DNA from: a virus
Taxonomy: Duplodnaviria; Heunggongvirae; Uroviricota; Caudoviricetes
Strand: one strand, 5' to 3'
IMG/VR virus record: IMGVR_UViG_2609459854_000002
Length of the DNA stretch: 42,050 bases
The notes under the pieces: generated by a model
The model's input: the letters and a program-made list of their open reading frames with translations, nothing else
Database searches by the model: none
Told to the model about the DNA's origin: nothing
Made by a program: the position numbers and the translations under genes
Shown here: positions 568 through 40,720 of the stretch, piece by piece
Layout of the letters: every line of letters begins with the position of its first letter
Position numbering within the stretch: position 1 is the first letter of the stretch

Positions 568-582
568 TTAGTATAAAAAAGC
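568..582. repeat. attR core (P-O-B' junction); 15-bp lambda-type core
   Basis: Sequence TTAGTATAAAAAAGC on + strand (reverse complement GCTTTTTTATACTAA); flanked on host side by CTTGAGCG (lambda B' arm-like) and on phage side by sequence resembling the lambda P arm. Confidence 0.85.
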
Positions 583-728
583 TGTACGTGAAACATCAAA
601 AACCATTAATATCAATATGTTACAATATCTTTGGTCTAAAAAATAGACTGCAAAATGCGACAAAACACAACATACCCAGTCACTATGAATCAACTACTTA
701 GATAGTATTAGTGACCTGTAACAGAGCA

Positions 729-770
729 TTAGCGCAAGGCGATTTTTTGTCCTCTTGCGCTAATTTTTTG
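729..770 (+). terminator. Hairpin plus T-run, positionally equivalent to lambda tI / sib retroregulator
   Basis: 10-bp stem TTAGCGCAAG / CTTGCGCTAA (729..738 and 754..763) followed by TTTTTTG; lies about 150 nt beyond the att core on the strand that an int-sense transcript would read in the circular phage. Assignment as sib/tI is inference from position. Confidence 0.5.
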
Positions 771-855
771 TCAACACACTGGGTTAGCTGAATTTACAAC
801 CATGCTCAGTATCTCGATAAGCGCAGAGAAATGATGCAATGGTGGGCGGACTGGC

Positions 856-891
856 TTGATGAAAAGGTGGAGTGATCCACCTTTTCATCAA
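856..891. repeat. Perfect 16-bp inverted repeat with 4-nt loop
   Basis: TTGATGAAAAGGTGGA gtga TCCACCTTTTCATCAA read directly; sits between the tI-like hairpin and the 3' end of the acyltransferase gene; no clean U-run on either strand. Confidence 0.6.
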
Positions 892-938
892 TTAAATATA
901 TTTGCAATAAAATAACCAAGAGGCACTATAAAATAACT

Positions 939-2048
939 CTAACTACACTTCGCAGTTAATTTATCACCTCTAAACTTTCTCCAATAACCTCTTATTATTT
1001 TATTTGAAGGCACTTCTATAACCTTGAATGAGATTATTGATACAATAATAGAAACCAATAAAGAAAATGCTATATACATTAACATCTCACACAAATTATC
1101 AGTGTCAGGGTTTAATATCTTAGTTATTACCTGTATTATCATCCAATGGAAAATGTAAAATGAGAAAGAGGCTTCACCAAGCAAAACCATAAATCTATTT
1201 TTAAGTATCTTAGATAAGACGCCACCATTAAAAGCAAATGCAATAACTATAAACGCCATGCAAGGGATATATAGAACATCATATTTTATGTTCATATATG
1301 TGATATAGTTTGTTGCTACATATATTGTCAAAAACAATGACAACACCGATGCGATCTCAAGTATACTGCAAACAGTATAGTTGATTTTTACATCACTATT
1401 AATAAACACCCTACAGATCAGCATTCCTATAATGAAATCGCCAATTCTAAATGATGGATTTATATAAAACAACCAATGCTGTGATATAGCTGATGGTGGA
1501 TTAATTAAATAATAAAAATTAATCGCAAGCACAAATAATAGCACACAAGTTAAATGCTTTGTCTTTAGCCTTGTTAATAAGCAAAATGCAACGTAGAAAA
1601 ACATCTCACATGAGATGCTCCATGAAACGGAATTAAAGGAAAAGTAATAATCCTGTAATGGAATAAATGATTGTAGTAATAATATATTTGAAATAAGCAT
1701 TCCATTATTAATACCATCAATACCCTTACCATGCATAAATATTAAAATAAAACAAATAAGCGCCACTATATGCACAGGGAATATTCTTGCAATCCTGTAT
1801 ACAATAAAATCTTTATTGCTAAATCTCTCTTTTTTTATATGATTTGTGAAGCTATAGTTTATAATGAAACCTGAAAGAATGTAGAAAAACGTTACACCTA
1901 TGTAACCGTTAAAAAAATACTTTGCCGCAGTATTAAACATACCAATAGATGATTGAGATAATAACCCAAGGTGACTAACGAAAACACCAAGGGCTGCAAA
2001 CATTCTCAACGATGTAAGACTTTGAATTATATTGCCTTTATTATTCAT
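939..2048 (-). CDS. Acyltransferase family 3 integral membrane protein (O-antigen acetylase-like lysogenic conversion candidate)
   Basis: 369-aa ORF, visibly AT-rich relative to neighbours; many hydrophobic segments; N-terminal region LTSLRMFAALGVFVSHL resembles the conserved start of acyltransferase-3 (Oac-like) proteins. Family call from memory. Confidence 0.7.
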   Translation of the reverse strand: MNNKGNIIQSLTSLRMFAALGVFVSHLGLLSQSSIGMFNTAAKYFFNGYIGVTFFYILSGFIINYSFTNHIKKERFSNKDFIVYRIARIFPVHIVALICFILIFMHGKGIDGINNGMLISNILLLQSFIPLQDYYFSFNSVSWSISCEMFFYVAFCLLTRLKTKHLTCVLLFVLAINFYYLINPPSAISQHWLFYINPSFRIGDFIIGMLICRVFINSDVKINYTVCSILEIASVLSLFLTIYVATNYITYMNIKYDVLYIPCMAFIVIAFAFNGGVLSKILKNRFMVLLGEASFSFYIFHWMIIQVITKILNPDTDNLCEMLMYIAFSLLVSIIVSIISFKVIEVPSNKIIRGYWRKFRGDKLTAKCS

Positions 2049-2118
2049 AACTCTGCCGGAATGGTTGAATTTCCCGGCAGGTTAGATTAACACATTAGCT
2101 ATGTCAATGTTTCTATTG

Positions 2119-3915
2119 TTAGAACTCCTTCACATCTGCGCCAGAAGACACGCTCCAGATCGAAACAGGCGACCCGTTTACACCTATTAACCTTGCTTTC
2201 AACCCATTTCCGCTTGCTCTTGGTACGGTTAAATTTGCAACAGATGGATTTATAGCCCAATCTCCACCATTTAATATGACACTCATTTCAACTACGCCAC
2301 CATTATCAATATCTATTATAGGTGTTTGCACTACCGGGCTTTGTTGATCAATTGGCAGAAAGCCATTGACAATAATAGATGGTCTGAATGATGGGTTTCC
2401 CTGAACGCTAACACGAAGTTGCCCACCCTTAACAAATTCTGTTGCACAAGTATTCATGACAATGCAATACGGATTTACAAAATCAAATGCATAGCAAATT
2501 GACTCCCCATCCATTGGCGTGCAGTTTTCAGCAGTACAATTGGTCATGGTAGTATATTGCATTCCTGACATTCTAAATGACAACTGGTAACCGTTAACCT
2601 GAACAAGGCGCATATCCATAGAAGTGCCTATTACTTTTATTTGACCATCCCTAAAATCTTCAAATAAAACTCCAGCATATCCTTTCCCTGGATATTGTGG
2701 GAAACCGACCATTTCCATTACGCCAGAGAACGGCACATAAGAGAAGCATCCGATATAAGCACATTCAAAAATTGACTGTCTGATAACTGGTGCTGCTGAT
2801 TTTCCTAAAAACAGTCCGTAATAATTTCTATAAGAATCTACGTTTTCTTGTGTTAAGCCAAGCCTTCTAAACATGCAGTTTTCAACTCTACCGTTAACAC
2901 AAAATGAACTCATTGAGTTATCTGTTAGATCCCATTGCTTTGGTATAAAAGCACATAATGCATCCACCTGAAGAATTACTTCTCCATTTTTTGTGAGATC
3001 TATTTTGTCATTTGTTGTTTTATAAAAAACTGTCGCTTCAGCCTTTCCCTGTCCTCTAATTCCCATATTGTCATAAATTGGGATTGTTTTTGATGTATTT
3101 ATGTTTCCAGCAGGAGCCTCTAGAATGCATTTGTTTGAGCGGGCAAAGTTAGTTGCAAGAGTTATAGCTGTTGCGTTATCTGTGACTCCGTCAGGTTTCA
3201 CCCCCCAAAATTGCATGTCGTAAGTGGTAAAATTAATTCGTCTCCATACCATCGTTCCAGTTTCTGGCTTGATTACAATTCCACCATCATCAGCCCACGC
3301 CTGAATGTTATCAACAGACTCGAAAAAGCCGCCACCAAGGTGGTTTTCAGCATGTGTAGTGCTAGCTGCTGATGCTACGTATACAATCTGCCCCGCCTCC
3401 TCTGGAACACAGGAGCGAAGCTCTGAAAGATTGAGAAAGCGGCCAATAGCGTTAAATCCTGTTTTATCAATTAATGAATCATGTGTAGCTTTCAAGATCT
3501 CCAGCTCAATCTTTACGGTTGTGCCTCCATAACCAACCAGAGATGCGCCATCAGGGCCAGAAAGCTCAGCCCTTAACTGGTCTGGAGAATATTTCAGTAG
3601 ATCAGGATAATAGAATTGTTGTGCGCCATACGCATCATATACAGCCATGGAGTGATTCTGTACAGTTACGAACTTGGCAATCTGTCCGTTATATACCGGA
3701 TATCCAGCAGCGTTAATGATGATTGGTTGAGAAACAGGAACGTGCGAGCCGTCTTCGTTCTCTACATAAACCTGAATCTGGTTTTCTGGATTTACCGGGT
3801 CAGTGTCAACCTGACCGATATAAATTTTGCCATTGGCTACGGCTTTAAAAGAACGCGCCATAGTGAAGAGTTGCGAAGGCATCGATACGATCACATTGGC
3901 TGTAATGTCTGTCAT
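2119..3915 (-). CDS. Tailspike protein (P22 gp9-like head-binding domain, distinct receptor-binding body)
   Basis: 598-aa ORF; first ~110 residues ([59 protein letters not shown]...) closely match the P22 tailspike N-terminus as I recall it; the remainder does not match the P22 endorhamnosidase domain. Confidence 0.85.
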
Positions 3916-4015
3916 TTAATTTGCTCCAGATACAAGGAATCGCCGCAGCATGGCTACGGTGAATTTTGGGCATAAAAAAACCCAGCCGAAGCTGGGTCGT
4001 TGCGTTGGTTATCTG

Positions 4016-4507
4016 TCAGTAGTTATGTACTGAAGGAGGTAATTCTTTATTCTTAAGTCTCATCCATGCGGAAAGATTCGTTGGTCCGTCTGGCTCATTA
4101 ATATCAACATCTCGTGTGTGGTTTATTAAAACGTCTCTCGCCATTCCGATAACATACGAGAATTCATGACCGTAGTCGTAGCATCTGCCGGAATAGTTCG
4201 ATTGAATTTGTTTTAATGCCGGATACAGTTCGCGGAATAATGCCTGTGAACGGTTAGCATAATCCCATAGCCATACAAGGCTGTTTGCTTCTTTTGCAGA
4301 AAGCTCGTTGGTTTTCTTCTCTTGTTTGCCGATGAACTCACCTTCAAGCACTACCCTGTGGATGTACTCTACGGCCAGCGGGATTTGTTCAATTGAAAGT
4401 TCATCAATGCTGTCAATACCAAAACGCTGATGAACCATATTGTATGCATCGTCATAGCGAAGTCCTTTCTTTCCTAAACAAAAAACCCACCTGACGGTGG
4501 GTTTCAT
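4016..4507 (-). CDS. Hypothetical protein (start uncertain; possible internal start near 4438)
   Basis: 163-codon ORF; its first ~10 codons are the terminator hairpin at 4475..4504, so the true start may be the in-frame ATG at 4438, which lacks a clear SD. No family recognised. Confidence 0.45.
4475..4504 (-). terminator. Rho-independent terminator-like hairpin after the 322-aa gene
   Basis: On the minus strand AACCCACC gtca GGTGGGTT followed by TTTTTTGTTT, immediately downstream of the stop codon at 4510..4512. Confidence 0.55.
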
Positions 4508-4509
4508 AA

Positions 4510-5478
4510 TTAGATTTCTGGTTTCATTCTTCCGAAAACCTTTTCTATTCCTTTTTCGTATTCTTCTCTTGTCTCACTCATCGCTGCGACACCAAGAAGC
4601 TTACCGATATGCTGACGCAAAGCCTTGACACCAATTTCAGAAAGGAACAGATGCAACTTATCAGATTGTTTTCCGTTCTCGTCTCGGCTGGCTCGAATCT
4701 GTTCAAGGATTTTACCTTTACTCTTTGCTAGCGGGGTGTATATCTGCATGTTGGTTAGCTGCCCAAAACGAATAGGCCGTCCTTTCTCTGGCCTATTCAG
4801 GCCGTACAGTCGATACCACTCCTCGTATAGCTCATCTGGAAATTCCTTTTCATATTGACGAGCCTCTTCACGAACAAACGCTTTGAACTCGTCAATGACA
4901 GCCTGAACTTCTGGACGATAACCAGCAAGCGCATACGCAACCCCCTTAATTCCCGCCTTAGCGGAGGCATTAATAAGTCTCTGTGCTGCGGCGGCTGCCT
5001 TTAACCGTGATTGTGGTAGATCGTCATTATCTTTGGCTTCTATTAGTGCCCTACCAATATCAACAATTGCTGTAATGTCATAACCTAACGCTTGATGAAC
5101 GGTTTTAGACTTCGAAGTAAGTTGAAATTTATAGGGATTTTCCATTTTTCGCTGCAATTCTAGATCTCGGTATTTGCTCATATACTGAGCGCCAAGCAGT
5201 TGATCTAAATCCCTGGCATGTTCACCAATCCCTAGCAACTGAGATAATCCAGTTTTCGTAACAACGACAGTTTTCGACTCGTCATCCAGTACATAACATT
5301 CAGCATCAATGCCAAAATCATCTAAAAAGTTACCACGATGAGTTGCCCTGAGAATCTTACTTTTCCATCTTGCAGCAGCTGCTTTCTTTGCTATTTCAGA
5401 ACGCTGCTCTTTAGTCAGCGACTTTGCGCGAGCGATCCCGCCCTTAGCTTTCCCTTCGCCACTTTTCTTTTCAGTCAT
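4510..5478 (-). CDS. Hypothetical protein with lysine/alanine-rich N-terminal region (possibly P63C-domain-like; unverified)
   Basis: ORF in track 4510..5541; first ATG in frame at 5478 ([38 protein letters not shown]...). Occupies the position of the arc-ant genes of P22 immI between gene 16 and tailspike. Confidence 0.5.
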
Positions 5479-5634
5479 AATGCAAGCACCTTTGTTGTGA
5501 TGTATGCTTGCATTATATACACTGTACACACATACAAGCAAGCATAAAACTAAAACAAAATGCTTGCATTACAACCGCGCTACTCCAACTACACATTATC
5601 ATCTGGTATCCTGCTCAAAACTAAGGAGGTTGGT
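5479..5634. promoter_or_regulatory. Divergent control region with repeated palindromic operator-like motifs
   Basis: GCTTGCATTA-type motif read three times (5481..5490 minus-strand sense, 5505..5515, 5561..5570) plus a related CAAGCAAGCAT at 5535..5545; lies between the divergently oriented genes 4510..5478 and 5635..5964. Confidence 0.5.
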
Positions 5635-5964
5635 GTGCTTGAATGGTTTCTGTTGGCTGCATTAGTCGTTTCTGGTTTGGTGTATGAGTATCGAATGCAC
5701 TCTCTAACAAAAAAAATAGGAATTCTAGAAAACGAATATTGTGCTCTCAAATCCTCACTGGAACGTGAGCAAGGGGACTTAAAAATCTCTCTGTCTAGCA
5801 TTGAGCGTTCTATAGAGAGCTTAGAGGATAAGGTTGATCGTATAAAGAATGAGGATATTCATGATATTAAGGACGACATATCCTTCTTAAAATCTTGGTT
5901 GAAAAATGTTGGGAAAATTGCCACATCAACACGAGATAAGCTCAATCCATCCATGGATGACTAA
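5635..5964 (+). CDS. Hypothetical small membrane-anchored coiled-coil protein
   Basis: GTG at 5635 preceded by AAGGAGG (SD); an alternative ATG at 5560 lacks an SD. Predicted N-terminal hydrophobic helix (LEWFLLAALVVSGLVY) followed by charged heptad-like sequence; AT-rich; converges tail-to-tail on the gp16-like gene. Confidence 0.4.
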   Translation: MLEWFLLAALVVSGLVYEYRMHSLTKKIGILENEYCALKSSLEREQGDLKISLSSIERSIESLEDKVDRIKNEDIHDIKDDISFLKSWLKNVGKIATSTRDKLNPSMDD

Positions 5965-8124
5965 TTACTCCTGTGCCATTCCGCTTAGCGATGCCACAAT
6001 TCCAGCTCTTGCTAAACGCTGGAACCCTTCGTTTCCTAGTGCCTCGCGTATTGCTTTTACGGCGGCCTTATTTGCCATAAATCTGCGTTCCGCCGCCGCT
6101 AATGCTTCTTTACTTCCGCCTGCTCTTACTGCTTTGGTGGCTTCCTGAACAGCTTTCTCTATCGCATATCGGCCACTACGTGTGGTGGCAATTTTAGATA
6201 CAGCGCCTTTTAACCCAGCGCCAACTAAAGCACCCGCGGCAGCGCCTGCAATACCCCCTCCAGCGCCACCAACAATGGCACCTGATGTTGAGTTGGCAAT
6301 TGCATTTAACACTGTTGATGTGACGTTGGATAAACCAGCATCCAGATCGCGTAGTACATTGGCAGTTCTCCCTGTTCTTTCAATATACTGCTGAGGTTTC
6401 ACTGCTGCTCTTGCAAGAGTGCCATATGCATCAGCAATTCTTCCGAGTTCTGAGGAATATCTGCTAATGGCTTTTACATTTTGTGGGGTAAGTATCCTTG
6501 CGATATGGTTAATTCCTGCTGCATCAGCTTTGCCACCACGTACACCATGCGAGATAGCGTCTTGCAACATTGATGATATAGCAGGAACACGCTCTGATTC
6601 TGGCAGCGCGCGGATCATAGAATGGAATCCAGCAGGACCATTAAGACCTTTAGCTGACGATGATTGAAGGGATTTTACTCCATTCGTAATCAGTGCATCT
6701 GTTGCCAAATCACGCCCGAAAACAGACTCTGCACTCTCTTGTGCTGATAACCTCGCTTTAGACAGATCATTAGCTTTCTGCCAGTCATCAAGAAATCCGC
6801 CGTTTTCCGCCATTGTGCGCATATCATCAGTAATTGCCCGGCGTATTTCCCCTGCTCTCCTTGCCGCATTTGCCTCTCCGCTACGCTTATATTTTTGCTC
6901 CGCATCAGCAAATTTCGCTCTCCATGCTTTCATGCCATCAAATGTTACTCCACCTTGATTGTTTGCCTGAACAAACTGTTTCATTTCAGGAGTAAGCGGT
7001 ATGCCAGCAGATCGCTCTGCCTGAATAACGGCATTACCATTTAGCATTCTTGCTTTTTGATTTGGCATTGTTGACCGCACGTCATCCCATGCCGCGCGCT
7101 CGGCATCCTTCATCTGATCAAGATTTTGAAGAATCCTTTGTTTTATAGCCGCACTTTTTTCTGATGCCGTTCCAGATGCGGCCCCAAATTCATCAAGGTT
7201 TCGACTTAACTTTGATGATATTTCGTTAAATGCTGCCTGATGGGCGTCCTGAACAATTCCTGGTGTTGATGCCAATGCGCCTTCGGCTTGTGCAATTCCA
7301 CGACTTCCAGATCGCATTCCTGGTGTTAATGCGTTTATATCAATTCCAGCAGACTCAGCCGCTTTTGCTACATCTTCGGACACATTAGCAGCCTGACTGG
7401 CAATTGACTGACGCCCAGCACCTGACTTTGCCATCCTGGAAACATCATTAGCAGAATTCAGTGCTGTACCACCAAGAGCCTGTGAAACCCTTGGCGCAAT
7501 AACGCGCCCGACACCTGAAAGAACGCCTTGAGCACCAATATTGATACCACCGTTAATGGCAGCATTTTGTGCAAAATCGCCCTCCTGATTTGCAGCATCA
7601 GCAAGAGAACCTGCAATCATGTTTCCTGCGGAACCGATGTCTCCTGCGAGCTTTGCTGGCGCTCCAGCAGCTTTTGCCGCTGTGCCAATTGGCAGGAGAT
7701 ACCCACCAATTGTTTCACCGGCTTGCGCGTAAGGGTCTGTCGGTCGATCGACTGGACGATAGACATCATCCAATACTTTTGGCCCACCAAGCCCCTGACT
7801 GATTGCATTAATCAGACTTGCGCCACCCTGCAATACGTCAAATGGTATGTTTACCAGACCACGACCAGCCTGTTCTGCAATTTGCCCTGCACTTTGACCA
7901 CCAGTGAGCCAATCGCCAGCTTGTTGCATCAATGATGGTTCTTCTTTCTGCTGCTGAGGCGGAGGGTATGCTGCATAAAACTGATCTCTTGCTTCAGCCC
8001 ATTTGTCACCAGCCTTAGGGGCAACAACCTCATCAAAATATTGCGCTTGAGCCTGTGCTTTCTGTTCTTCAGTTAACGCCTGATACTGTGGAGAGGCGAT
8101 AACATCTTTCCATGCTTTAGCCAT
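5965..8124 (-). CDS. Ejection (DNA transfer) protein, P22 gp16-like
   Basis: 719-aa Ala/Gly/Gln-rich ORF at the end of the gp7-gp20-gp16 series; assignment by synteny and composition. Confidence 0.7.
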
Positions 8125-9512
8125 TAATCACCCCATAGTGAAGAAAAGTTACTGCTGGCTGCTGGCTGTGATACCTGTGCAGGTTGAGATTGCTGCCGCT
8201 GAGATTTACCAACATTAACGTTATATTGTTGGTTGTAATTGTTGGTGTATTCCTGAATCTCACGAATCGACTGCTGCATAGCCTCCGGGCTTGAATAGTC
8301 AACCTGCGGCATCCCCTGAAAATACATCTTCGCTTCTGCAACGGTGTTAATACCACTGGCACCCATGTCCCTTGCTGCCGCCACACCCTGATTCTGCATT
8401 CTGCCCTGAATACGTTGTGCTGAGTTATATAACTGGCGCTGCTCTTTTCCCGTTAATCGGCTGCGAACATCAGCACCAATTGCTGGATTACCTGCACCAC
8501 CTGTCATTCCTGTCATGAAATCGAGAGCAGAAGCGTCTGCATTTGCGATCGCGTCGATATCCTTCTTCATGGCATAGTTTTGTGCTGATGCAGACGATGT
8601 TGCAGGCGCAGCGATTGAACTGGCAGGGACGCGAACCATATTCCCATCGTTGTCGATGCCTTCGTAGAACGCATTAGCCCCAGCGCCATGAAGCTTCCCG
8701 CCTACCGTTACAGTTCTGCCATCTGATAACTGAACTGTACGCTCATCATTCCCAGCGATTCCTCTTGTTGACGCTCGCTGCATTGCCAAATCCTGACCTC
8801 GTCGCGCAGTAGAAGCAGATAAGTCCTGACCGCGCATCGTGATGTTCTGGCCTCGTGCTGTTAGCGCCTCGCCAGCCTGATTGCTGCGGATTGTCTCTGC
8901 AAGTTTCCCGCGATCAATCTCACGACCAGCCATCTTGTCCTGAACATTGAAGTAATCAATTGGACCAAGAGCAGCCATTCCAAGGTGATCAACAAACTCA
9001 CCAAATCCTGAAGGGTTCTGCTGATACATCTGAGCAACGCTGTTAGGGTCAACACCGACGCGAGTCAGTTCCTTGGCGTTGTTTTGCAGCCATGATTGCA
9101 TTGCTTCTGGAGACGATGACGCAAGGCGTGCGCCAGCCGCTAAGGTGCCGATAGAATTACGCTGGTCTTCATCAATGAATCCCATGCCTTTACGAACGGA
9201 TTCAATCTGTTCTGGATATTGAGTAGCCAACTGACGCAAAGCACCGCGATCACCAGACGCATAAGCATTAGCGTATGCCTGCTGAAATTCTTTCTGCCGC
9301 TGAGCCTGCTTTTCCTGCTGAAACACCCCCGCAATACCTGAAAGGCCTTGCAAAGCAGTCAGCCCAACATTGTTAGCGCCTGAACGCTCAATATCATTGT
9401 TCTGCCTGATAAGCTGAAGCGTATTGCCGATGTCATTTACGCTCGGAGCGTTTGAGTTGACGCCGCCGATACCAGCCAACAATCCGCCGTTTGTTCCTTG
9501 CCAAGTAGCCAT
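8124..9512 (-). CDS. Ejection protein, P22 gp20-like
   Basis: 462-aa ORF (P22 gp20 is about 471 aa) in conserved order between gp7-like and gp16-like genes. Confidence 0.7.
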
Positions 9513-32456: not shown

Positions 32457-32479
32457 TTTCCTTTAAAAATCAAAGCCAA

Positions 32480-32560: not shown

Positions 32561-32597
32561 CAGCAGGACGCTGGTAGCCAAACGGAACAGATTGGCA

Positions 32598-32639: not shown

Positions 32640-32953
32640 ACCAAAGAGTAGTTGGCTTTGGGGTGACGTGAAGTGCAGCTGCACGACGGCAACCGGAAGA
32701 TAAGCACCCGGCGCGTCACCTACAAAGTCAATTCCATAGGCGTTATGCAGCCGCCACCATATTCAAGAAAGCTGCACAAGAGGTAGGAGGATTTATGTGA
32801 ATACTTACATTCAGTTGAGAGATTAATTAAATAGAACTGATCGAGCAGAGCCCGTGAAGGCTCATAAATGCTCTTCCATCCCCGTCTAATTGGCGGGGAA
32901 GGAAACCACTTTGTAATAAAAAAAATTCCAAAGTTGTTTCATCGGAGGTCAAC

Positions 32954-33259
32954 ATGACAGTAGTCATTACATATCTGGCTGACGATAACGCCAGAAATCG
33001 CCGCAGAGCACGCAGACAGGCTCAACGTGAACAGGCAATGCAAGAGCAGCGACTGGCGCGAAAAATTGCGCTAAAGCTCTCTGGTTGCGTCAGAGCAGAT
33101 AAAGCAGCATCACTCGGAAGCCTTCGCTGCAAGAAGGCAGAAGAAGTCGAGCGTAAACAGAACCGTATTTACTACCGCAAGCCACGCAGTGAAATGGGGG
33201 TGACTTGTGTTGGCCGCCAGAAGCAACGCGGAAAATCAATTCCAGCTTATTACGATTGA
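32954..33259 (+). CDS. N-like transcription antiterminator
   Basis: 101 aa with arginine-rich N-terminal motif (NARNRRRARRQAQREQ); C-terminal half resembles phage 21 N as recalled; first gene downstream of candidate pL/nutL. Confidence 0.65.
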   Translation: MTVVITYLADDNARNRRRARRQAQREQAMQEQRLARKIALKLSGCVRADKAASLGSLRCKKAEEVERKQNRIYYRKPRSEMGVTCVGRQKQRGKSIPAYYD

Positions 33260-33267
33260 GGTGAGAT

Positions 33268-33519
33268 ATGGAATTTCATGAAAGTGCGATTTGTGATTTT
33301 CGCGCTAACGCAAATTCAGTAAAACCACAGCCAATTGCAGTTCTTTTTAAAACAATGGGTGCGTGGGCTGTTTTATGCTTCGCCGCTGATGACACTGACG
33401 CAAGAATGGCAATAGGCCAAGAGATGGAGATGGACCCGACAAACGATGAATTCATAATTTATGGCGCTCCATCTAATTACTTACTTGATACCTGCAACAT
33501 TTACAACAAGGCTGCCTGA
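33268..33519 (+). CDS. Hypothetical protein in ral position (possible Ral-like)
   Basis: 83-aa ORF immediately after N; C-terminus ...NKAA is the same as lambda Ral as recalled, otherwise not recognisable. Confidence 0.35.
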   Translation: MEFHESAICDFRANANSVKPQPIAVLFKTMGAWAVLCFAADDTDARMAIGQEMEMDPTNDEFIIYGAPSNYLLDTCNIYNKAA

Positions 33520-33655
33520 TGGTGGCCTTTATTTTTGGCATAAACAACAGAATAAATACTGCACTGTGTATTCATTCCAACGAGTGAATACACGGAGCAA
33601 TGTCGCTCGTAACTAAACAGGAGCCGACTTGTTCTGATTATTTGAAATCTTCTTT

Positions 33656-33685
33656 GCCCTCCAGTGTGAGGGCCTTTTTATATGC
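33656..33685 (+). terminator. Terminator-like hairpin (tL-type)
   Basis: GCCCTC cagtgt GAGGGC followed by CTTTTTAT, upstream of cIII. Confidence 0.45.
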
Positions 33686-33742
33686 ATACCAATAACGCTT
33701 CACTCGAGGCGTTTTTAGTTATGCATAAATAAGGATCACACC

Positions 33743-33868
33743 ATGCAATATGCCATTGCAGGGTGGCCTGTTGCTGGCTGCCCTTCCGAATCTTTACTTG
33801 AACGAATCACCCGTAAATTACGTGACGGATGGAAAAGAGTTGAGGTCTTATTATGCGCAATGAAATAG
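33743..33868 (+). CDS. cIII: CIII-like protein (FtsH inhibitor), C-terminally divergent
   Basis: MQYAIAGWPVAGCPSESLLERITRKLRDGWKR matches the lambda CIII N-terminus as recalled; 41 codons, not in track because under 60 aa. Confidence 0.7.
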   Translation: MQYAIAGWPVAGCPSESLLERITRKLRDGWKRVEVLLCAMK

Positions 33869-34005
33869 CCATTAATCACCAGATGCTTCGTGCGGCACAA
33901 AACAAAGCAGTAATAGCCAGATTTATTGGTGATTCAAAAATGTGGCTTGAAGCAAATAAAGCGATGAAATCAGCTATCAACCTTCCGTGGTATCGCAGGA
34001 AATGA
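33853..34005 (+). CDS. Kil-like small protein (tentative)
   Basis: 49-codon ORF overlapping the cIII end; ...AVIARFIGDSKMWLEANKAM... loosely resembles lambda Kil as recalled; position matches. Confidence 0.4.
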   Translation: MRNEIAINHQMLRAAQNKAVIARFIGDSKMWLEANKAMKSAINLPWYRRK

Positions 34006-34259
34006 GTTTTACAGATAACTGGTCAGACGAAGAATTCATTCGTCAGATGAAAGAATTAATCGGTAACGAAGGAGATATTCATGTCACTTGCAACCACAGT
34101 GAAGGAGAGCAAGTTACAGAGACGCATGTACACGCAGAAAGCTCTCTGGTATCGCCATCATGGTGACCGCGAAGGAATGCGGGTATGCCTTAATTTGTCC
34201 CGAGTCGAAGTATTAAATCAGCGTTATTTCCTTGGGCCGCGTCCATTCTGAGGTGAATT

Positions 34260-34967
34260 ATGGATTTGAATAAATTCGATGAGCCATTCAGCCCTGAAGA
34301 TATCGAATGGCGAATACAGCAAAGCGGTAAAACACGCGATAGCAAGGTGTGGGCTATGGTGCTGGCTTATGTCACGAACCGGGCAATCATGAAGCGCCTG
34401 GACGATGTTTGCGGCAAAGCAGGATGGCGCAATGAATACCGCGATATTCCCAACAACGGCGGAGTTGAATGCGGCATATCAATCAAGATTGATTCCGAAT
34501 GGGTAACCAAATGGGATGCTGCTGAAAACACGCAGGTAGAAGCCGTCAAAGGCGGTCGTTCCGGTGCAATGAAGCGCGCTGCCGTTCAGTGGGGAATCGG
34601 TCGGTATCTGTATAACCTTGAGGAAGGTTTTGCACAAACATCTCTCGATAAAAAGCAGGGATGGCACAGGGCAAAACTGAAGGATGGAACAGGATTTTAC
34701 TGGCTCCCTCCATCGCTGCCGGGATGGGCAATCCCAGCATCAGATAACAAACCATCACCAGAAAATACCAACCAGAAATCTCCATCGGTTGACTGCGAAC
34801 AAATCCTGAAAGACTTCAGCGATTATGCGTCAACAGAAACTGACAAGAAAAAACTCATCGAGCGTTATCAGCGTGACTGGCAATTAATGGCTGGCAACGA
34901 GGAAGCGCAGGCTAAATGCGTTCAGGTAATGAACATCAGAGTTAACGAACTAAAACAGGCGGCATAA
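34260..34967 (+). CDS. Rad52-family single-strand annealing protein
   Basis: 235 aa; motif ...KRAAVQWGIGRYLYNLE... is characteristic of Rad52/Sak-type phage recombinases (from memory). Confidence 0.65.
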   Translation: MDLNKFDEPFSPEDIEWRIQQSGKTRDSKVWAMVLAYVTNRAIMKRLDDVCGKAGWRNEYRDIPNNGGVECGISIKIDSEWVTKWDAAENTQVEAVKGGRSGAMKRAAVQWGIGRYLYNLEEGFAQTSLDKKQGWHRAKLKDGTGFYWLPPSLPGWAIPASDNKPSPENTNQKSPSVDCEQILKDFSDYASTETDKKKLIERYQRDWQLMAGNEEAQAKCVQVMNIRVNELKQAA

Positions 34968-35441
34968 ATGGGAAGTAGAGGCGTAAATAAGGTGATCATT
35001 ATTGGTCGCCTTGGGCATGATCCAGAAATCAGATATTCACCATCAGGAACGGCATTTGCAAACCTTACAGTTGCTACGTCAGAACAATGGCGTGATAAGC
35101 AAACTGGAGAGCAAAAGGAGCAGACGGAGTGGCACCGTGTGGTAATGAGCGGGAAACTGGCAGAAATTGCCAGCGAATATCTGCGAAAAGGCTCTGAGGT
35201 TTATCTTGAAGGCAAATTGCGGACAAGAAAATGGCAGGATCAAAGCGGACAGGATAGGTTCACTACCGAAGTCATCGTGGGCGTTGGTGGAACCATGCAA
35301 ATGCTTGGTGGCAAGCAAGGAGGCAATGAACAGTCTTCACCTCAGCGAAATAACGGTCATCAACAAAGACAGCAACCTCAGCAGCATGGAAATCACAGCG
35401 AACCACCTATGAACTTCGACGATTCGGATATTCCGTTCTAG
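34968..35441 (+). CDS. ssb: Single-stranded DNA-binding protein
   Basis: OB-fold region near-identical to E. coli SSB as recalled and acidic tail ...[11 protein letters not shown]. Confidence 0.85.
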
Positions 35442-35450
35442 GAGCTGAAT

Positions 35451-35930
35451 ATGAAAATCTGCTCAAGATGCCATCAACAGAAGGAAGAAAGGGACTTTCA
35501 AATCAGAAGAGCATCCAGAGATGGATTAACTGCCGCTTGCCGGGCTTGCCTGGCTGAATATGACAAAGAGCGCGCGGGATTGCCACATCGAGTATCAGCA
35601 AGGAGAGAATATCAATCATCGGAACGCGGCAGAGAACGGTGTAACGCAGCCAAAAAGCGGTTCATTCAGAGCAACCCATGGAAAAGAAAAGCCCACATCA
35701 TCGTGGGTAATTTTTTGCGCGACGGTAAGCTAATCCGACCACCACAATGTGAGTGCTGCGGATCAGAATGTAAACCACAGGCGCACCACTGCGACTACAG
35801 CAAACCAACCGATGTGATGTGGCTCTGCAAGTCATGTCATGTCGAGTGGCACAAACATAACAAACCTATCTACCCAGACGAGGAGCCAGTAACTCTCCCC
35901 TTCCCTCGTCACGCTATTCACGCAATTTAA
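35451..35930 (+). CDS. Cys-rich protein with HNH-like C-terminal motif
   Basis: N-terminal CSRC...CRAC zinc-ribbon-like pairs; C-terminal CECCGSECKPQAHHCDYSKPTDVMWLCKSCHVEWH resembles an HNH nuclease core. Confidence 0.45.
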   Translation: MKICSRCHQQKEERDFQIRRASRDGLTAACRACLAEYDKERAGLPHRVSARREYQSSERGRERCNAAKKRFIQSNPWKRKAHIIVGNFLRDGKLIRPPQCECCGSECKPQAHHCDYSKPTDVMWLCKSCHVEWHKHNKPIYPDEEPVTLPFPRHAIHAI

Positions 35931-35938
35931 GGACTTAC

Positions 35939-36487
35939 ATGAATCACTTAATGGTTGACCTTGAAACAATGGGCAACGGGCCATACGCGCCAGTTATTTC
36001 TATTGGGGCGGTATTCTTTGACCCGAATACCGGAGAAACAGGAGAAGAGTTCTCGGTAAATATCTCGCTTGAGTCATCAATGCGATATCGGGCGCGTCCT
36101 GACGCTTCAACGATTTTATGGTGGATGGAACAGAGTGAAGAAGCCAGAAAATCGCTAACCAGCAACACTCAAGAGCTTTCAACGGCTCTTTCATGGTTAT
36201 CTGAATTCATCATAAAGAACGCTAACCACAAATTCGTTCAGGTTTGGGGGAATGGAGCATCATTTGACTGCGTTATTCTCCGAAACAGTTATTCGCTGAC
36301 AGGGCAGCCAGTTCCGTGGCAGTGGTGGAATGAACGAGACGTAAGAACAATCGTCGAGCTTGGAAAGGTAATAGGATTCGACCCTAAGCGAGATATGCCA
36401 TTCAAAGGAACTCGCCACAACGCGCTTGATGATGCCATCCACCAAACCAAATACGTTTCAGCGATCTGGAAAAAGTTAGCTAAATAA
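35939..36487 (+). CDS. DEDDh-type 3'-5' exonuclease
   Basis: MVDLETMG (Exo I-like D-x-E), WGNGASFD, and HNALDDA motifs. Confidence 0.6.
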   Translation: MNHLMVDLETMGNGPYAPVISIGAVFFDPNTGETGEEFSVNISLESSMRYRARPDASTILWWMEQSEEARKSLTSNTQELSTALSWLSEFIIKNANHKFVQVWGNGASFDCVILRNSYSLTGQPVPWQWWNERDVRTIVELGKVIGFDPKRDMPFKGTRHNALDDAIHQTKYVSAIWKKLAK

Positions 36488-36503
36488 TCAACAGGAGAAA
36501 AAC

Positions 36504-36800
36504 ATGCCAGCGCCTTTGTATGGTGAGGATGACGCGCGCCGCTGTTCCGGCAATTCCGTATCGGAGGTGCTGGATAAATTCAGAAAAAACTACGATCGGA
36601 TAATGTCGCTACCGCAGGAAACGAAAGAGGAAAAGGAATTTCGCCACTGTATATGGCTTGCAGAGAAAGAAGAACGCGAGCGAATTTACCAGACATCAAT
36701 CCGACCATTCCGCAAAGCCACATATACCCACTTCCCTGAATATATCGACCCGCGCCTGCGTAATTACCGCTCACGCTATGGCGCTATCAGTAATGACTGA
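36504..36800 (+). CDS. Hypothetical protein
   Basis: 98-codon ORF in early-left operon orientation. Confidence 0.4.
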
Positions 36801-36974
36801 GGAATTTACCATGAGAGGACTTGCATACAATCCCGGCATTCTTCCGGCAGAAATGATTATTCGCCAACGCGTAAAGCCAATGCCATCGAGAGAGGAATTG
36901 CTTAAGAGAAATTCTTTTCCATCAGTGAATCAAAACAAATATCTGAATGCGATGTGGCGCAAAGGAGGCAACCA

Positions 36975-37229
36975 GTGAGTAATTCAGCACGACTACAGCT
37001 TGGTTTTTCACCGCTATCAAAAACTATCATGCTGGCAAAAATGCGCGATGTTGAAGGTGGACGTATGCGCGTTGGCAATGATCCAGGTCGTGATGTTACC
37101 AATGAGGCTGCTCAATTGGTGTGGCAACTGGTCATGGCTGAAGGTGGTGAGATAGTGTGGGAGCTGGATGATGGTTCTCGCATGGTGTTGAAGGCAGAAA
37201 AGCAGGAGGCAACCAGTGAGCAAGATTGA
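36975..37229 (+). CDS. Hypothetical protein (GTG start after AGGAGG)
   Basis: ORF 36954..37229 in track; start placed at GTG 36975 preceded by AAAGGAGG. Confidence 0.35.
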
Positions 37230-37935
37230 TTATCAGGCACTGCGTGAAAAGGCAGAGAAAGCAACGTGTGGTGTATGGTCGATCGAATATGGAGAGAGTC
37301 GATTTGATGGTGATGATGCGTTAATTCATCGTGAAGTTGCTGGATATATTCCCATTTGCAGAATTGAAGGAGCGCATCCAGAAAGCGGTTTCGATGAAGA
37401 TTTCCAAATGGAACAGCAGGCCAATGCTGAATTCATCGCCGCAGCCAATCCGGCTACCGTGCTGACTCTGCTGGACGATCTGGAAGCAGCAAAAAAGCGC
37501 ATTGCAGAACTGGAAGACGAACCTGTAAGCCAAACTTACAAGTTGCCAGTTAATACACCTTGCCAAGATGCGCCAGCCCATATCTGGCTGCAAACAGCTG
37601 GAGTATGGCCAGAAGATGGCGAGTTAAGCGAATTAACGTGGTGCAGCCACAATCAGCACCATGATGACACACTATATGTTCGAGCTGACCTTGTGAATGG
37701 CAACTATCCGGTAACTCCGGATGGTTGGATAAGCTGTAGTGATCGAATGCCGGAAGACACCAAAATGTTACTGGCATTTAGTCAAGGTGAAATCGTGGCC
37801 GCATATTGGAACTGGGTTGTAAATCCAATTGATTACAAAAAATATAGAGCTTTCACGTATTTATCAGGAAATATCTTGGATGACGTAACTCACTGGATGC
37901 CGCTACCAGAACCGCCTCAGGAGGTTAAGCCGTGA
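37216..37935 (+). CDS. Hypothetical protein (Ea22-like N-terminus / DUF551-like C-terminus, tentative)
   Basis: 239 aa; GTG start in repeated junction cassette; C-terminal ...THWMPLPEPP resembles DUF551 proteins (from memory). Confidence 0.45.
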   Translation: MSKIDYQALREKAEKATCGVWSIEYGESRFDGDDALIHREVAGYIPICRIEGAHPESGFDEDFQMEQQANAEFIAAANPATVLTLLDDLEAAKKRIAELEDEPVSQTYKLPVNTPCQDAPAHIWLQTAGVWPEDGELSELTWCSHNQHHDDTLYVRADLVNGNYPVTPDGWISCSDRMPEDTKMLLAFSQGEIVAAYWNWVVNPIDYKKYRAFTYLSGNILDDVTHWMPLPEPPQEVKP

Positions 37936-38052
37936 TTACAGCACTAGCATGGCATTTCAGTGAAAGCATTTATGGCTGGATGCTGGCAATTACAGCAATT
38001 CAGGATTTGGCAATCACATCGTTTATTTTCAGCCTGTGCAGGAGGTGAAGCC

Positions 38053-38310
38053 GTGAAACACTTACGCTATGACTGTATGGGTGCTGCTTATTCAGGAGAA
38101 AGCAGGCACCCGCAAGAAGTAATTCGCGAGCTTGGTATCACGTATGAGCGCGCTATTCCTCAAAGCATGGGTGACCAGTGGTGGCTATTCAATTGTCAGC
38201 ACGGTGAACTGCCAAAATACATTACTGAAATGAAGTGTGATAACTGGATGGCTAAGCAGTATCTGCTTCCTGATGCATACGTTAACGATAATCAGCCAGC
38301 ATCACAGTAG
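38053..38310 (+). CDS. Hypothetical protein
   Basis: GTG at 38053 preceded by GCAGGAGGTGAAG; track ORF extends upstream to 37960 without an SD. Confidence 0.4.
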   Translation: MKHLRYDCMGAAYSGESRHPQEVIRELGITYERAIPQSMGDQWWLFNCQHGELPKYITEMKCDNWMAKQYLLPDAYVNDNQPASQ

Positions 38311-38321
38311 CAGGAGGTGAA

Positions 38322-38513
38322 GTGAGTATGAGTGCATCACTAATAACCGCCTTCAATCAAAGCGCAAATCCAAGCAATGAGCAGGTTGTTGTGTTCGGCT
38401 GGATTGCTGAGTATTTCGAAAGCATTTTCGACGATGAATCCGCTAGGTATTGCAGGAATATTTCTGAATCACTCAAAAATCAGGTTTCTGCTCAACAGGA
38501 GGTGAAGTCGTGA
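38322..38513 (+). CDS. Hypothetical protein
   Basis: GTG start preceded by CAGGAGGTGAAG; C-terminus QQEVKS encodes the next junction cassette. Confidence 0.4.
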   Translation: MSMSASLITAFNQSANPSNEQVVVFGWIAEYFESIFDDESARYCRNISESLKNQVSAQQEVKS

Positions 38514-38722
38514 GCAAGCACATCATCAAATATGACTATCGAGAGGGAGTTAAACTCCCTAAGCACGAGATTGAGACATGGTGCGGTCATCGGCCTGGTT
38601 CATTCGAATATCTTTTTCAGGATGCTCAGCATGCGCTATTGAGCATTGAGCAGGAAACGCTGCTTGTTCCTTGCAAGAATTGTCTGGCAGCAATCATCAA
38701 AACGGCGCAGGAGGTGAAGTGA
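38510..38722 (+). CDS. Hypothetical protein
   Basis: GTG start overlapping upstream stop (GTGA); C-terminus AQEVK encodes the next junction cassette. Confidence 0.4.
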   Translation: MSKHIIKYDYREGVKLPKHEIETWCGHRPGSFEYLFQDAQHALLSIEQETLLVPCKNCLAAIIKTAQEVK

Positions 38723-39000
38723 TGGACTCCTTCGCGAAATATACGATTATTGACTGGATAGCCTTCCTTCAGGTTTTGCTCATCTGGTTTTATATGGCTT
38801 ACAGGAGTGGACAGTGGATTGTCAGTGTAGCATGTAGCAGGGGATGGCGTTGGTGGAACCAAAAGAATAAAAAAGCACTGGCATTGGATTCGTTTTACGA
38901 AGCATTCAATCTTAACAGCCTTCAGCCTGGTTCTGTCATTGTAGTCACCACTCAAAGCGGCATGACCATTCAGATTCATAAACCAAAAGAGGAAAAATGA
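38722..39000 (+). CDS. Hypothetical protein with one predicted hydrophobic helix
   Basis: ATG at 38722 (or GTG 38719) after CAGGAGGTGAAG; segment IIDWIAFLQVLLIWFYMAY is hydrophobic. Confidence 0.4.
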   Translation: MDSFAKYTIIDWIAFLQVLLIWFYMAYRSGQWIVSVACSRGWRWWNQKNKKALALDSFYEAFNLNSLQPGSVIVVTTQSGMTIQIHKPKEEK

Positions 39001-39158
39001 TGTGGCCTATATGTGTTAATTGCGGACGGATGTGCCTATCTGGATGGTGCCGAAAGTGCGACAAATGCACAAAGCAAAGACAATAACAATCCTCGCACTC
39101 GCGGGGATTTCTTTTATCTGAACTCGCTACAGCGAGTTTTGTTTTATGGAGATGATAA

Positions 39159-39326
39159 ATGCACTTCCGAGTCACAGGTGAATGGAATGGAGAACCATTC
39201 AACAGAGTTATCGAAGCAGAGGACATCAACGACTGCTATGACCACTGGATGATATGGGCGCAGATAGCACATGCAGACGTAACCAACATTCGAATTGAAG
39301 AACTGAAAGAACACCAATCCGCCTGA
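39159..39326 (+). CDS. Small protein in the position of lambda orf55 (tentative)
   Basis: 55-codon ORF just upstream of xis followed by hairpin CCGCC tgat GGCGG + TTTTTTATT (39313..39340); homology not verified. Confidence 0.4.
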   Translation: MHFRVTGEWNGEPFNRVIEAEDINDCYDHWMIWAQIAHADVTNIRIEELKEHQSA

Positions 39327-39365
39327 TGGCGGTTTTTTATTGCGTGTAATTGCGGAGACTTTGCG

Positions 39366-39584
39366 ATGTACTTGACACTTCAGGAGTGGAACGCACGCCA
39401 GCGACGTCCAAGAAGCCTTGAAACAGTTCGTCGATGGGTACGCGAGTGCAAGATATTCCCTCCTCCGGTTAAGGATGGAAGAGAGTATCTGTTCCACGAA
39501 TCAGCGGTAAAGGTTGACTTAAATCGACCAGTAACAGGTAGCCTTTTGAAGAGGATCAGAAATGGGAAGAAGGCGAAGTCATGA
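39366..39584 (+). CDS. xis: Excisionase
   Basis: MYLTLQEWNARQRRPRSLETVRRWVRECKIFPPPVKDGREYLFHESAVKVDLNRPVTGSLLKRIRNGKKAKS, essentially lambda Xis as recalled. Confidence 0.9.
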   Translation: MYLTLQEWNARQRRPRSLETVRRWVRECKIFPPPVKDGREYLFHESAVKVDLNRPVTGSLLKRIRNGKKAKS

Positions 39585-40632
39585 GCGCCGGGATTTACCC
39601 CCTAACCTTTATATAAGAAACAATGGATATTACTGCTACAGGGACCCAAGGACGGGTAAAGAGTTCGGATTAGGCAGAGACAGGAGGATAGCAATTACTG
39701 AAGCAATACAGGCAAACATTGAGTTATTTTCAGGACACAAACACAAGCCTCTGACAGCAAGAATCAACAGTGATAATTCTGTTACGCTACATTCATGGCT
39801 TGATCGCTACGAAAAAATACTCGCCAGCAGAGGAATCAAGCAGAAGACACTCATAAATTACATGAGCAAAATTAAAGCAATAAGGAGGGGTCTGCCTGAT
39901 GCTCCACTTGAAGACATCACCACAAAAGAAATTGCGGCAATGCTTAATGGATACATAGACGAGGGCAAGGCGGCATCAGCCAAGTTAATCAGATCAACAC
40001 TGAGCGATGCATTCCGAGAGGCAATAGCTGAAGGCCATATAACAACAAACCCGGTCGCTGCCACTCGCGCAGCAAAATCAGAGGTAAGGAGATCAAGGCT
40101 TACGGCTGACGAATACCTGAAAATTTATCAAGCAGCAGAATCATCACCATGTTGGCTAAGACTTGCAATGGAACTGGCTGTTGTTACCGGGCAGAGAGTT
40201 GGTGATTTATGCGAAATGAAGTGGTCTGATATCGTAGATGGATATCTTTATGTCGAGCAAAGCAAAACAGGCGTAAAAATTGCCATCCCAACAGCATTGC
40301 ATGTTGATGCTCTCGGAATATCAATGAAGGAAACACTTGATAAATGCAAAGAGATTCTTGGCGGAGAAACCATAATTGCATCTACTCGTCGCGAACCGCT
40401 TTCATCCGGCACAGTATCAAGGTATTTTATGCGCGCACGAAAAGCATCAGGTCTTTCCTTCGAAGGGGATCCGCCTACCTTTCACGAGTTGCGCAGTTTG
40501 TCTGCAAGACTCTATGAGAAGCAGATAAGCGATAAGTTTGCTCAACATCTTCTCGGGCATAAGTCGGACACCATGGCATCACAGTATCGTGATGACAGAG
40601 GCAGGGAGTGGGACAAAATTGAAATCAAATAA
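39562..40632 (+). CDS. int: Tyrosine integrase (lambda Int-like)
   Basis: 356 aa, same length as lambda Int; N-terminus MGRRRSHERRDLPPNLYIRNNGYYCYRDPRTGKEFGLGRDRRIAITEAIQAN matches as recalled; overlaps xis as in lambda. Confidence 0.95.
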   Translation: MGRRRSHERRDLPPNLYIRNNGYYCYRDPRTGKEFGLGRDRRIAITEAIQANIELFSGHKHKPLTARINSDNSVTLHSWLDRYEKILASRGIKQKTLINYMSKIKAIRRGLPDAPLEDITTKEIAAMLNGYIDEGKAASAKLIRSTLSDAFREAIAEGHITTNPVAATRAAKSEVRRSRLTADEYLKIYQAAESSPCWLRLAMELAVVTGQRVGDLCEMKWSDIVDGYLYVEQSKTGVKIAIPTALHVDALGISMKETLDKCKEILGGETIIASTRREPLSSGTVSRYFMRARKASGLSFEGDPPTFHELRSLSARLYEKQISDKFAQHLLGHKSDTMASQYRDDRGREWDKIEIK

Positions 40633-40705
40633 TGATTTTATTTTGACTGATAGTGACCTGTTCGTTGCAACAAATTGATAAGCAATGCTTTTTTATAATA
40701 CCAAC

Positions 40706-40720
40706 TTAGTATAAAAAAGC
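40706..40720. repeat. attL core (B-O-P' junction); 15-bp lambda-type core
   Basis: TTAGTATAAAAAAGC on + strand, identical to the copy at 568..582; phage side (40633..40705) resembles the lambda P' arm, host side continues AGGCTTCA (lambda B arm-like). Confidence 0.85.

Follow-up and report, generated by a model that had tools for sequence, protein, structure and literature searches.

A P22-like prophage with a lambda-type integration module at the lambda attB site: an apparently intact lambdoid mosaic

The window analysed here is a DNA stretch of 42,050 nucleotides (nt) (IMG/VR virus record IMGVR_UViG_2609459854_000002), in which an element occupying positions 568 to 40720, and bounded by two lambda-type attachment (att) cores, is flanked by the host genes ybhB and ybhC (Table 1). 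An earlier note on this DNA had regarded the element as a mosaic, in which P22-like virion, lysis and immunity genes and lambda- or 21-like N, cIII and kil genes were combined with a lambda-like integration module, and had described it as complete and plausibly inducible. The element was aligned with eight reference phages, namely lambda, P22, Sf6, HK620, IME10, Huey, Dewey and Louie. On this basis, it is very probably a single, apparently intact 40.1-kilobase (kb) temperate P22-like (Lederbergvirus-type) podovirus prophage with a lambda-type insertion and the makeup of a lambdoid mosaic.

Table 1. Features of the window, in order of position (aa, amino acids; ORF, open reading frame; SAR, signal-anchor-release)
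Feature	Position	Strand	Basis
Host flank ybhB (bio side)	1-477	+	158-aa ORF; same DNA annotated ybhB in many E. coli genomes
att core, ybhB-side junction, P-O-B' (attR in lambda nomenclature)	568-582	-	Exact 15-bp lambda core
P arm, lambda-type, with P1 and P2 arm-type Int sites; Xis/Fis/IHF-H2 segment of Huey type	583-790	-	Alignments to lambda and Huey
3' remnant of IntS (argW-type) integrase gene, 27 codons	791-868	+	C-terminus match
Acyl_transf_3 membrane acyltransferase, 369 aa, candidate O-antigen acetylase	939-2048	-	Pfam PF01757, E=1.5e-26
Tailspike (gene 9 equivalent), 598 aa	2119-3915	-	Pfam Head_binding PF09008
Ant antirepressor remnant, C-terminal domain only, 163 aa	4016-4507	-	Pfam P22_AR_C
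P63C-domain protein, ant-moron region	4510-5478	-	Pfam P63C, E=7.6e-14
hkcB-like gene, ant-moron region	5560-5964	+	Similarity to HK620 hkcB
Genes 16, 20, 7, 14, 26, 10 and 4 (ejection and head completion)	5965-13514	-	Colinear with P22; aa identity as in the text
Coat (gene 5)	13698-14993	-	P22 gp5; 99% to Dewey and Louie over 431 aa
HNH endonuclease, between scaffold and coat genes	15061-15582	+	100% aa identity to the Dewey/Louie gene at the same site
Scaffold (gene 8) and portal (gene 1)	15583-18676	-	P22; 98-99% to Dewey, Louie and IME10
HNH_3 homing-type endonuclease, between terL and portal genes	18727-19227	+	Pfam HNH_3, E=2e-13
terL and terS (genes 2 and 3)	19237-21211	-	P22; TerL 99% to IME10
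Lysis cassette	22997-24130	-	Pfam, PDB, P22 identity
 Rz	22997-23467	-	
 Endolysin, predicted SAR type	23452-23955	-	
 Class II holin	23927-24130	-	
tRNA-Thr(TGT) and tRNA-Asn(GTT), downstream of PR'	24375-24530	-	ARAGORN, Rfam
Late antiterminator Q, phage 21/Sf6 type	24594-25112	-	99% to Sf6 gp59; PR'/qut/tR' leader downstream
nin region: ninH, rusA, HkbD-like gene, ninF, Dcm-like C5 methyltransferase, ninE, ninB, small ORFs	25109-28543	-	tblastn; Pfam, TIGRFAM and PADLOC for the methyltransferase
DnaB-type helicase (P) and O initiator	28630-30946	-	99-100% to IME10, Sf6 and HK620; only 31% to P22 gp12
Immunity core, with OR/PR/PRM	31129-32432		P22 and IME10 identity
 cII/c1	31129-31494	-	
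 cro	31516-31701	-	
 c2	31782-32432	+	
Antiterminator N, 101 aa, hybrid	32954-33259	+	HK620/mEp213-type arm, 21-like body
cIII and kil (block 33730-34005)	33743-33868; 33853-34005	+	Rfam; lambda/Sf6 identity
Recombination and 'ea' accessory genes: erf, ssb, 3'-5' exonuclease, abc2, Ead/Ea22-DUF551, small ORFs	34260-39326	+	tblastn against IME10, Sf6 and Huey; PHROGs, Pfam
xis and int, lambda type	39366-40632	+	Lambda and Huey protein identity
P' arm and att core, ybhC-side junction, B-O-P' (attL in lambda nomenclature)	40633-40720	-	Lambda alignment; exact core
Host flank ybhC (gal side)	40767-42050	+	Annotated ybhC in matching genomes

The lambda att core, GCTTTTTTATACTAA, of 15 base pairs (bp), has exactly two copies in the window (568-582 and 40706-40720), both on the minus strand, while 0.01 matches would be expected by chance and none of 100 dinucleotide-preserving shuffles gave two copies. 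The core at the ybhB side has CTTGAGCG (B') on its host side and the P arm on its phage side, and the host bases beside both cores are those of the canonical attB (...GCCT-core-CTTGAGCG). When the host flanks were joined over one core, the resulting 350-nt empty site proved to be uninterrupted in 3488 of the 5426 complete E. coli genomes, in several of them at 100% identity, and to be annotated there as the junction of ybhB with ybhC; the proposed insertion between these two genes is thus borne out both by the flanking genes and by the empty site in those genomes. The element between the cores measures 40.1 kb and has a guanine-cytosine (GC) content of 46.7%, compared with 52.3% in the flanks, and it lies in the orientation of a lambda lysogen, with the integrase toward ybhC (gal).

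The integration enzymes, the P' arm and the P1 and P2 sites are likewise lambda-like, much as had been claimed. Int (39562-40632, 356 aa) is identical to lambda Int in 354 of its 356 residues, the sole changes being H164P and I248V, and its catalytic residues R212, K235, H308, R311, H333 and Y342 are all intact, while Xis (39366-39584) shares 70 of 72 residues with lambda Xis (changes R29K and G59S); both proteins are 100% identical to those of phage Huey. At the DNA level, positions 39083-40720 are 97.6% identical to lambda 27724-29361, and in the alignment of the reconstituted attP the P' arm (P'1-P'3) is that of lambda, with a single mismatch adjoining the core. Over 216 nt, the P arm shares 84.7% identity with lambda 27528-27742; both P1 and P2 are conserved, and the segment between them carries a single-base change. 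The lambda-type att/int/xis DNA amounts to about 1.85 kb in all, and integration and excision would presumably be carried out by Int and Xis.

Between this P arm and the acyltransferase gene lies the remnant of a different integrase gene. Positions 791-868 translate to IYNHAQYLDKRREMMQWWADWLDEKVE, followed by a stop, identical to the IntS C-terminus of E. coli 19KM2326N; there is no att site attached to the fragment, and the homology to IntS-type prophages starts within it, at about window position 792. The remnant is read as a recombination scar, left where a lambda-type att/int/xis cassette would have replaced an IntS-type module. The same joint between P arm and IntS remnant is carried by phage Huey, since window 564-870, which covers both the P arm and the scar, is 96.7% identical to Huey 17378-17072. 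The fragment, together with the finding that lambda-type DNA lies at the two ends only (564-779 and 39083-40720), could also be accounted for by two abutting elements, a lambda-like att/int/xis remnant and an unrelated P22-like prophage, or by an assembly chimera. Nevertheless, there is a single pair of att cores and one copy per functional module, the 40.1 kb fit a P22-type headful, and the IntS fragment consists of just 27 codons with no associated att site. Moreover, the joint recurs, with identical int and xis, in Huey, an isolated phage whose genome was assembled as a circle, and a finished E. coli chromosome (EC556) carries a prophage laid out in the same way from end to end, so that a composite origin of this kind appears extremely improbable.

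Within this single prophage, the virion genes are present as a complete P22-like set: all 13 genes follow the P22 order (3-2-1-8-5-4-10-26-14-7-20-16-9) on the minus strand between 2119 and 21211, and each aligns over its full length with a homologue in P22 and/or Dewey, IME10 and Sf6. Compared with P22, the proteins are 58-93% identical over their full length, gp26 excepted, which matches in its N-terminal half only, and the figures include 93% for TerL and for gp10, 91% for gp14, 85% for the scaffold, 83% for gp7, 77% for the portal and 72% for the coat. Compared with Dewey, Louie and IME10, identities are of 77-100%, rising to 96-100% for all but gp20 and gp26, and the ejection and head-completion proteins reach up to 100% identity to those of IME10, Dewey, Louie or Sf6. 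The tail needle gp26 is of the long Sf6/Louie type (282 aa, 87% identity) and gene 20 is mosaic in itself. Since the head genes of the Sf6 subtype (Huey, Sf6, HK620) are only 26-40% identical, whereas the relatives of the P22 subtype are much closer, the assembly module belongs to the P22 subtype of the P22-like modules.

The immunity core is equally close to P22. C2 (216 aa) is 92% identical to P22 C2, which provides its best PDB matches (1ADR and 2R1J), and Cro (61 aa) agrees with P22 Cro in 57 of 61 residues (an identity given as 95%). Residues 1-53 of C2, which include the DNA-binding helices, show two changes with respect to P22 (N2K and K16E), and conservation extends to the Ala-Gly self-cleavage site and to the C-terminal domain; in addition, OR has the P22 base at 77 of 80 positions, and OL closely resembles that of P22. 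On these grounds, C2, Cro and the operators would be effectively immP22. Such immunity is not new in E. coli phages, since C2 and Cro are 100% identical to those of the E. coli phage IME10. The P22-like immunity put forward in the earlier note therefore stands for the C2/Cro/OR core and fails for immI, where only the C-terminal domain of Ant is left (83% identity to the C-terminal 155 aa of P22 Ant) and where, among the ORFs of 30 aa or more in 3900-6000, none was assignable to arc or mnt. The reading of 4016-5541 as a split ant gene was considered and rejected, because the upstream ORF is a separate P63C-domain gene, which also stands alone in the EC556 prophage, where a 322-aa P63C-domain protein is annotated; the 163-aa ORF is therefore best read as an Ant remnant. 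In P22, immI is dispensable, and the ant-moron region is highly variable among P22-like phages (PMC2629481).

The remaining regulators are of further origin. In N, residues 1-64, with the RNA-binding arm, are 98-100% identical to N of HK620 and mEp213, and residues 37-97 match N of lambda h434 imm21 at 90% identity, while no match to P22 gp24 was obtained; its identification as P22 gp24 or as lambda N was thus rejected in favour of an HK620-arm/21-body hybrid, and the regions annotated as nutL and nutR in HK620 recur here at 96-97% identity. The comparison with phage 21 rests, in the case of N, on the lambda h434 imm21 hybrid record and, in the case of Q and the tRNAs, on the annotation notes of Sf6. 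CIII (41 aa) is a chimera as well, with residues 1-32 equal to lambda and the C-terminal 9 residues equal to Sf6, and the lambda cIII thermoregulator RNA is found at its 5' end (33730-33788; Rfam Lambda_thermo, 80.3 bits). The DNA around cIII (33503-33835) is 96-98% identical to lambda, with the lambda ea10 gene missing between the two matches, and Kil is 100% identical to Sf6 Kil. These three genes are indeed not of P22 type, and their previous description as lambda- or 21-like holds and can be refined to a hybrid HK620/21 N, a lambda/Sf6 chimeric cIII and an Sf6 kil.

The replication genes come from the HK620, Sf6 and IME10 side of the family, and both Sf6 and HK620 annotate the origin inside the O gene. 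The late control region is that of Sf6, window 24135-25111 being 97.6% identical to Sf6 35485-36458, including the annotated PR', qut and tR' and the tRNA pair, which is labelled in Sf6 as 'similar to phage 21'; Asn and Thr tRNA genes are occasionally present in P22-like phages (PMC2629481). As regards lysis, the 67-aa holin is of class II and finds its best family in Pfam Phage_holin_2_3 (75 bits); it falls outside the S21 family, as Phage_holin_2_1 (P21 holin S) gave 19.5 bits against a cut-off of 26, and the protein is not an S21 orthologue. The endolysin, a 167-aa GH24 protein with a Gly/Ala-rich, SAR-like N-terminus, matches PDB 3HDE, the R21 endolysin of phage 21, with E=3e-104 over 165 aa, and is predicted to be an R21-type SAR endolysin of the phage-21 kind. 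The holin-endolysin pair is 93-96% identical at the nt level to that of the P22-like Salmonella phages ST104, SPN9CC and SEN22. The lysis genes had been taken as P22-like, which holds for Rz only (87% identical to P22 gp15) and was rejected for the holin, by its family match, and for the endolysin, which is 34% identical to P22 gp19.

As judged from these alignments, the modules can be assigned to lambda (att/int/xis), to P22 (virion genes and immunity core), to the phage-21/Sf6 group (Q, tRNAs and endolysin) and to the HK620/Sf6/IME10 group (replication). The alignment of the whole prophage with lambda, P22, HK620 and Sf6, extended to IME10, Huey, Dewey and Louie, backs in this way the mosaic proposed from the first reading, in which a lambda-type integration module and a P22-type virion and immunity core are joined by modules of further origin.

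The same comparison bears on completeness. Every gene which is essential in P22 has a full-length counterpart here and, since each gene matches a full-length homologue, neither frameshift nor truncation was found in any essential gene on comparison with its homologues, in keeping with the complete appearance reported before. The early-region order of lambdoid phages is present at 21241-40632 (int-xis-ea-recombination-cIII-N-PL, repressor, PR-cro-cII-O-P-nin-Q-lysis). In addition, a site of matching type accompanies each regulator. The operators OR and OL are there for C2 and Cro, nutL and nutR for the N arm, qut for Q, attP for Int and Xis, the origin within the O gene for O and, for TerS, which is 100% identical to that of IME10, its own gene, the location of the pac site in P22. 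Because the essential genes are full length and each regulator has a cognate-type site, it is plausible that the prophage is inducible. In such a case, PL and PR would be repressed by C2 in the lysogen until RecA stimulated C2 to cleave itself at the conserved Ala-Gly site, which would release the early operons from repression. Antitermination by N at the nut sites cognate to it and excision at the two cores by Int and Xis would follow, and Q would subsequently activate the genes for lysis and for the virion. All that is said here of expression, excision, induction and serotype conversion is predicted from sequence.

A prophage with this structure could still be cryptic, if induction, excision or assembly were blocked by missense or regulatory mutations or by the divergence of the P arm in its Xis/Fis/IHF part. 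Several observations weigh on this side and against an intact element. The X1/X2 (Xis), Fis and IHF-H2 stretch of the P arm is strongly diverged from lambda; the portal departs from close relatives (Dewey) in its first approximately 25 residues and TerL in its last 3, right beside an HNH insertion; immI is incomplete, with an Ant remnant and neither arc nor mnt; and inactivating point mutations which leave the length unchanged may be present in any gene, function not being certifiable from sequence alone. Furthermore, the related EC556 prophage at the same site has decayed, its tailspike gene and gene 16 being truncated. Nevertheless, all essential genes have their full length and share 87-100% identity with those of the plaque-isolated phages Dewey, Louie, IME10, Sf6 and Huey, and the P arm is of the same type as, and in the diverged stretch near-identical to, that of Huey, which is viable. 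Each regulator keeps a site of its own type, and both the catalytic residues of Int and the cleavage site of C2 are intact. A cryptic state thus seems unlikely, and the apparently intact temperate prophage remains the preferred description.

The portal and TerL changes lie next to one of two HNH genes, both on the strand opposite to the late operon. The one between terL and portal is rare: among 5426 complete E. coli genomes only 2 carry it, none of the 8 reference phages has it, and a relative with 68% identity occupies the same terL/portal position in Salmonella phage SEN22. In both other genomes with this gene, a 722-aa portal variant is annotated as intact. The diverged portal N-terminus and TerL end are as would be expected for a homing endonuclease with co-conversion, and the recoded 5' end of the portal gene beside it would suggest that homing was recent. 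As a separate observation, a prophage of E. coli 19451123 has three HNH genes within its virion operon.

The left end of the prophage carries the genes most directly concerned with the host surface. Residues 1-113 of the tailspike match the Pfam Head_binding domain (E=6e-65), and the PDB matches to the P22 and Sf6 tailspikes cover residues 1-118 only (E down to 1e-61), while the PDB search related the receptor-binding part to no solved tailspike; a P22-type head-binding domain is therefore joined to a different receptor-binding domain, in a protein whose length of 598 aa is the same in other genomes. The neighbouring acyltransferase gene, with a GC content of approximately 30%, is located between the tailspike gene and the att site, in the position of oac in Sf6 and of gtrABC in P22, and a gene of the same length (1110 bp) is annotated as acyltransferase in other E. 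coli prophages. It is a candidate lysogenic conversion cargo, probably expressed from the prophage, and its product probably modifies the O-antigen recognised by the tailspike. Six other complete E. coli genomes carry the whole cassette (939-3915) at 98-99.5% identity; its genes have equal lengths there and no pseudogene flags, and it lies beside IntS at tRNA-Arg or beside torT, the torS-torT region holding the HK022 attB. Since it is thus present beside IntS/tRNA-Arg, beside torT and at the lambda attB, the cassette moves among prophages of differing integration specificity.

As for the accessory genes, the Dcm-like C5 methyltransferase of the nin region (26374-27360, minus strand) is divergent, with partial matches to Pfam and TIGRFAM models and a TIGR score below the cut-off. 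A frameshift in the overlapping ORFs 26374-27360 and 26418-27227 was considered and rejected: the methylase motifs are in the 328-aa frame and the 269-aa ORF has no family match, for which reasons the latter is treated as a spurious overlap, not as a lesion. A PADLOC search of the unassigned ORFs for defence systems gave only generic methyltransferase matches for this same gene. Three further ORFs, at 21630-21872 (minus strand, 80 aa), 28361-28543 (minus strand, 60 aa) and 37960-38310 (plus strand, 116 aa), had no match in PHROGs, Pfam or the 8 reference phages, nor did the last of them in NCBIfam or PADLOC. They could represent orphan accessory genes, or else be non-coding. An Rfam int-alpA small RNA motif was noticed at 21892-21954 (minus strand; 42 bits, with a gathering threshold of 35.8), in the stretch that separates the KilA-N gene from the small ORFs of the late leader.

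Among known phages, IME10 (NC_019501) is the best overall relative, with approximately 53% of the prophage aligned at 84-99% nt identity. It shares the P22-subtype virion genes, a P-O-cII-cro-c2-OL block of 99% nt identity, N and the erf-ssb block, but has an IntS (argW-type) integrase, lambda-type S/R lysis genes, a different tailspike, nin region and cargo, and no terL/portal HNH gene. Huey (PQ850609), a Lederbergvirus isolated as plaques (Maffei, Willi & Harms 2025, PMC12243541), has in common with the prophage the lambda-type integration module described above, with its attP arm and IntS joint, together with O, P and cII (98.8% nt identity), Q (98% at the protein level), abc2 (97% at the protein level) and the erf region (87% nt identity). 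In contrast, its head genes are of the Sf6 subtype (coat 26%, portal 34%), its repressor is 53% identical, its tailspike targets O16, its lysis genes are of the lambda S/R type, its morons are others and it lacks HNH insertions.

P22 (NC_002371) shares the architecture, the virion gene order, near-identical OR and OL, the tailspike head-binding domain and, apart from the C2, Cro and Rz identities already given, abc2 (91%) and ninB (94%). Unlike the prophage, it integrates at thrW with an unrelated Int, uses gp24 as N and gp18/gp12 for replication (31%), and has a lambda-type Q (gp23), the class I holin gp13 and the soluble lysozyme gp19, as well as a full immI (mnt-arc-ant), sieA, and gtrABC in place of the acyltransferase. 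As for lambda (NC_001416), the common part comprises Int, Xis, the attP core, the P' arm, P1/P2, the attB site, the prophage orientation, CIII residues 1-32 with the thermoregulator RNA, and NinB (96%), whereas only approximately 3.4 of 40 kb align: lambda is a siphovirus with unrelated virion genes and cI/cro immunity, it differs in the N arm, O, P and Q, and it combines a class I S with a soluble R.

A further close counterpart is the EC556 prophage (NZ_AP027440, 1,565,3xx-1,605,8xx). It shares the ybhB/ybhC site and the orientation, and next to ybhC it has an excisionase and an integrase of 356 aa; its virion genes are of the P22 subtype, the tRNA-Thr/Asn pair follows Q, and KilA-N and P63C genes are present. 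Approximately 66% of the left half of the window aligns with it, at 95% identity, whereas its immunity, replication and lysis genes (with a lambda-family holin) are different, and its tailspike gene and gene 16 are pseudogenes. In several further complete E. coli genomes, the match runs from ybhB straight into P22-type virion genes. No phage record or complete E. coli genome covers at least 80% of either half of the window, and therefore the exact mosaic is not catalogued, even though every module is; in the literature, nothing was found linking P22-like phages, ybhC and integrase. It is well established that P22-like phages belong to the lambdoid group, are mosaic and differ among themselves in integration specificity, of which there are several (PMC2629481). 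The prophage is a case of ordinary phage mosaicism, because P22-like virion genes were already combined with lambda Int and attP in Huey and in other E. coli genomes such as EC556.

It may tentatively be proposed, though with considerable doubt, that the prophage brings together a live E. coli phage homoimmune with P22, homing HNH genes which invade the virion operon, and an uncharacterised tailspike/acyltransferase O-antigen pair distributed over three sites (lambda attB, argW and beside torT). The most interesting residue of the analysis consists of the rare terL/portal HNH gene, the IntS scar and the tailspike/acyltransferase pair. Beyond annotation, the finding matters little, and it poses no challenge to the current understanding of mosaicism in P22-like phages (PMC2629481). 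It does provide a well-resolved case of lambdoid modular exchange in which regulators travel with their cognate sites, and reminds annotators that a prophage at the lambda attB is not necessarily lambda-like. Furthermore, it draws attention to a likely O-antigen-modifying cargo paired with a tailspike, and to a candidate immP22 phage for E. coli.

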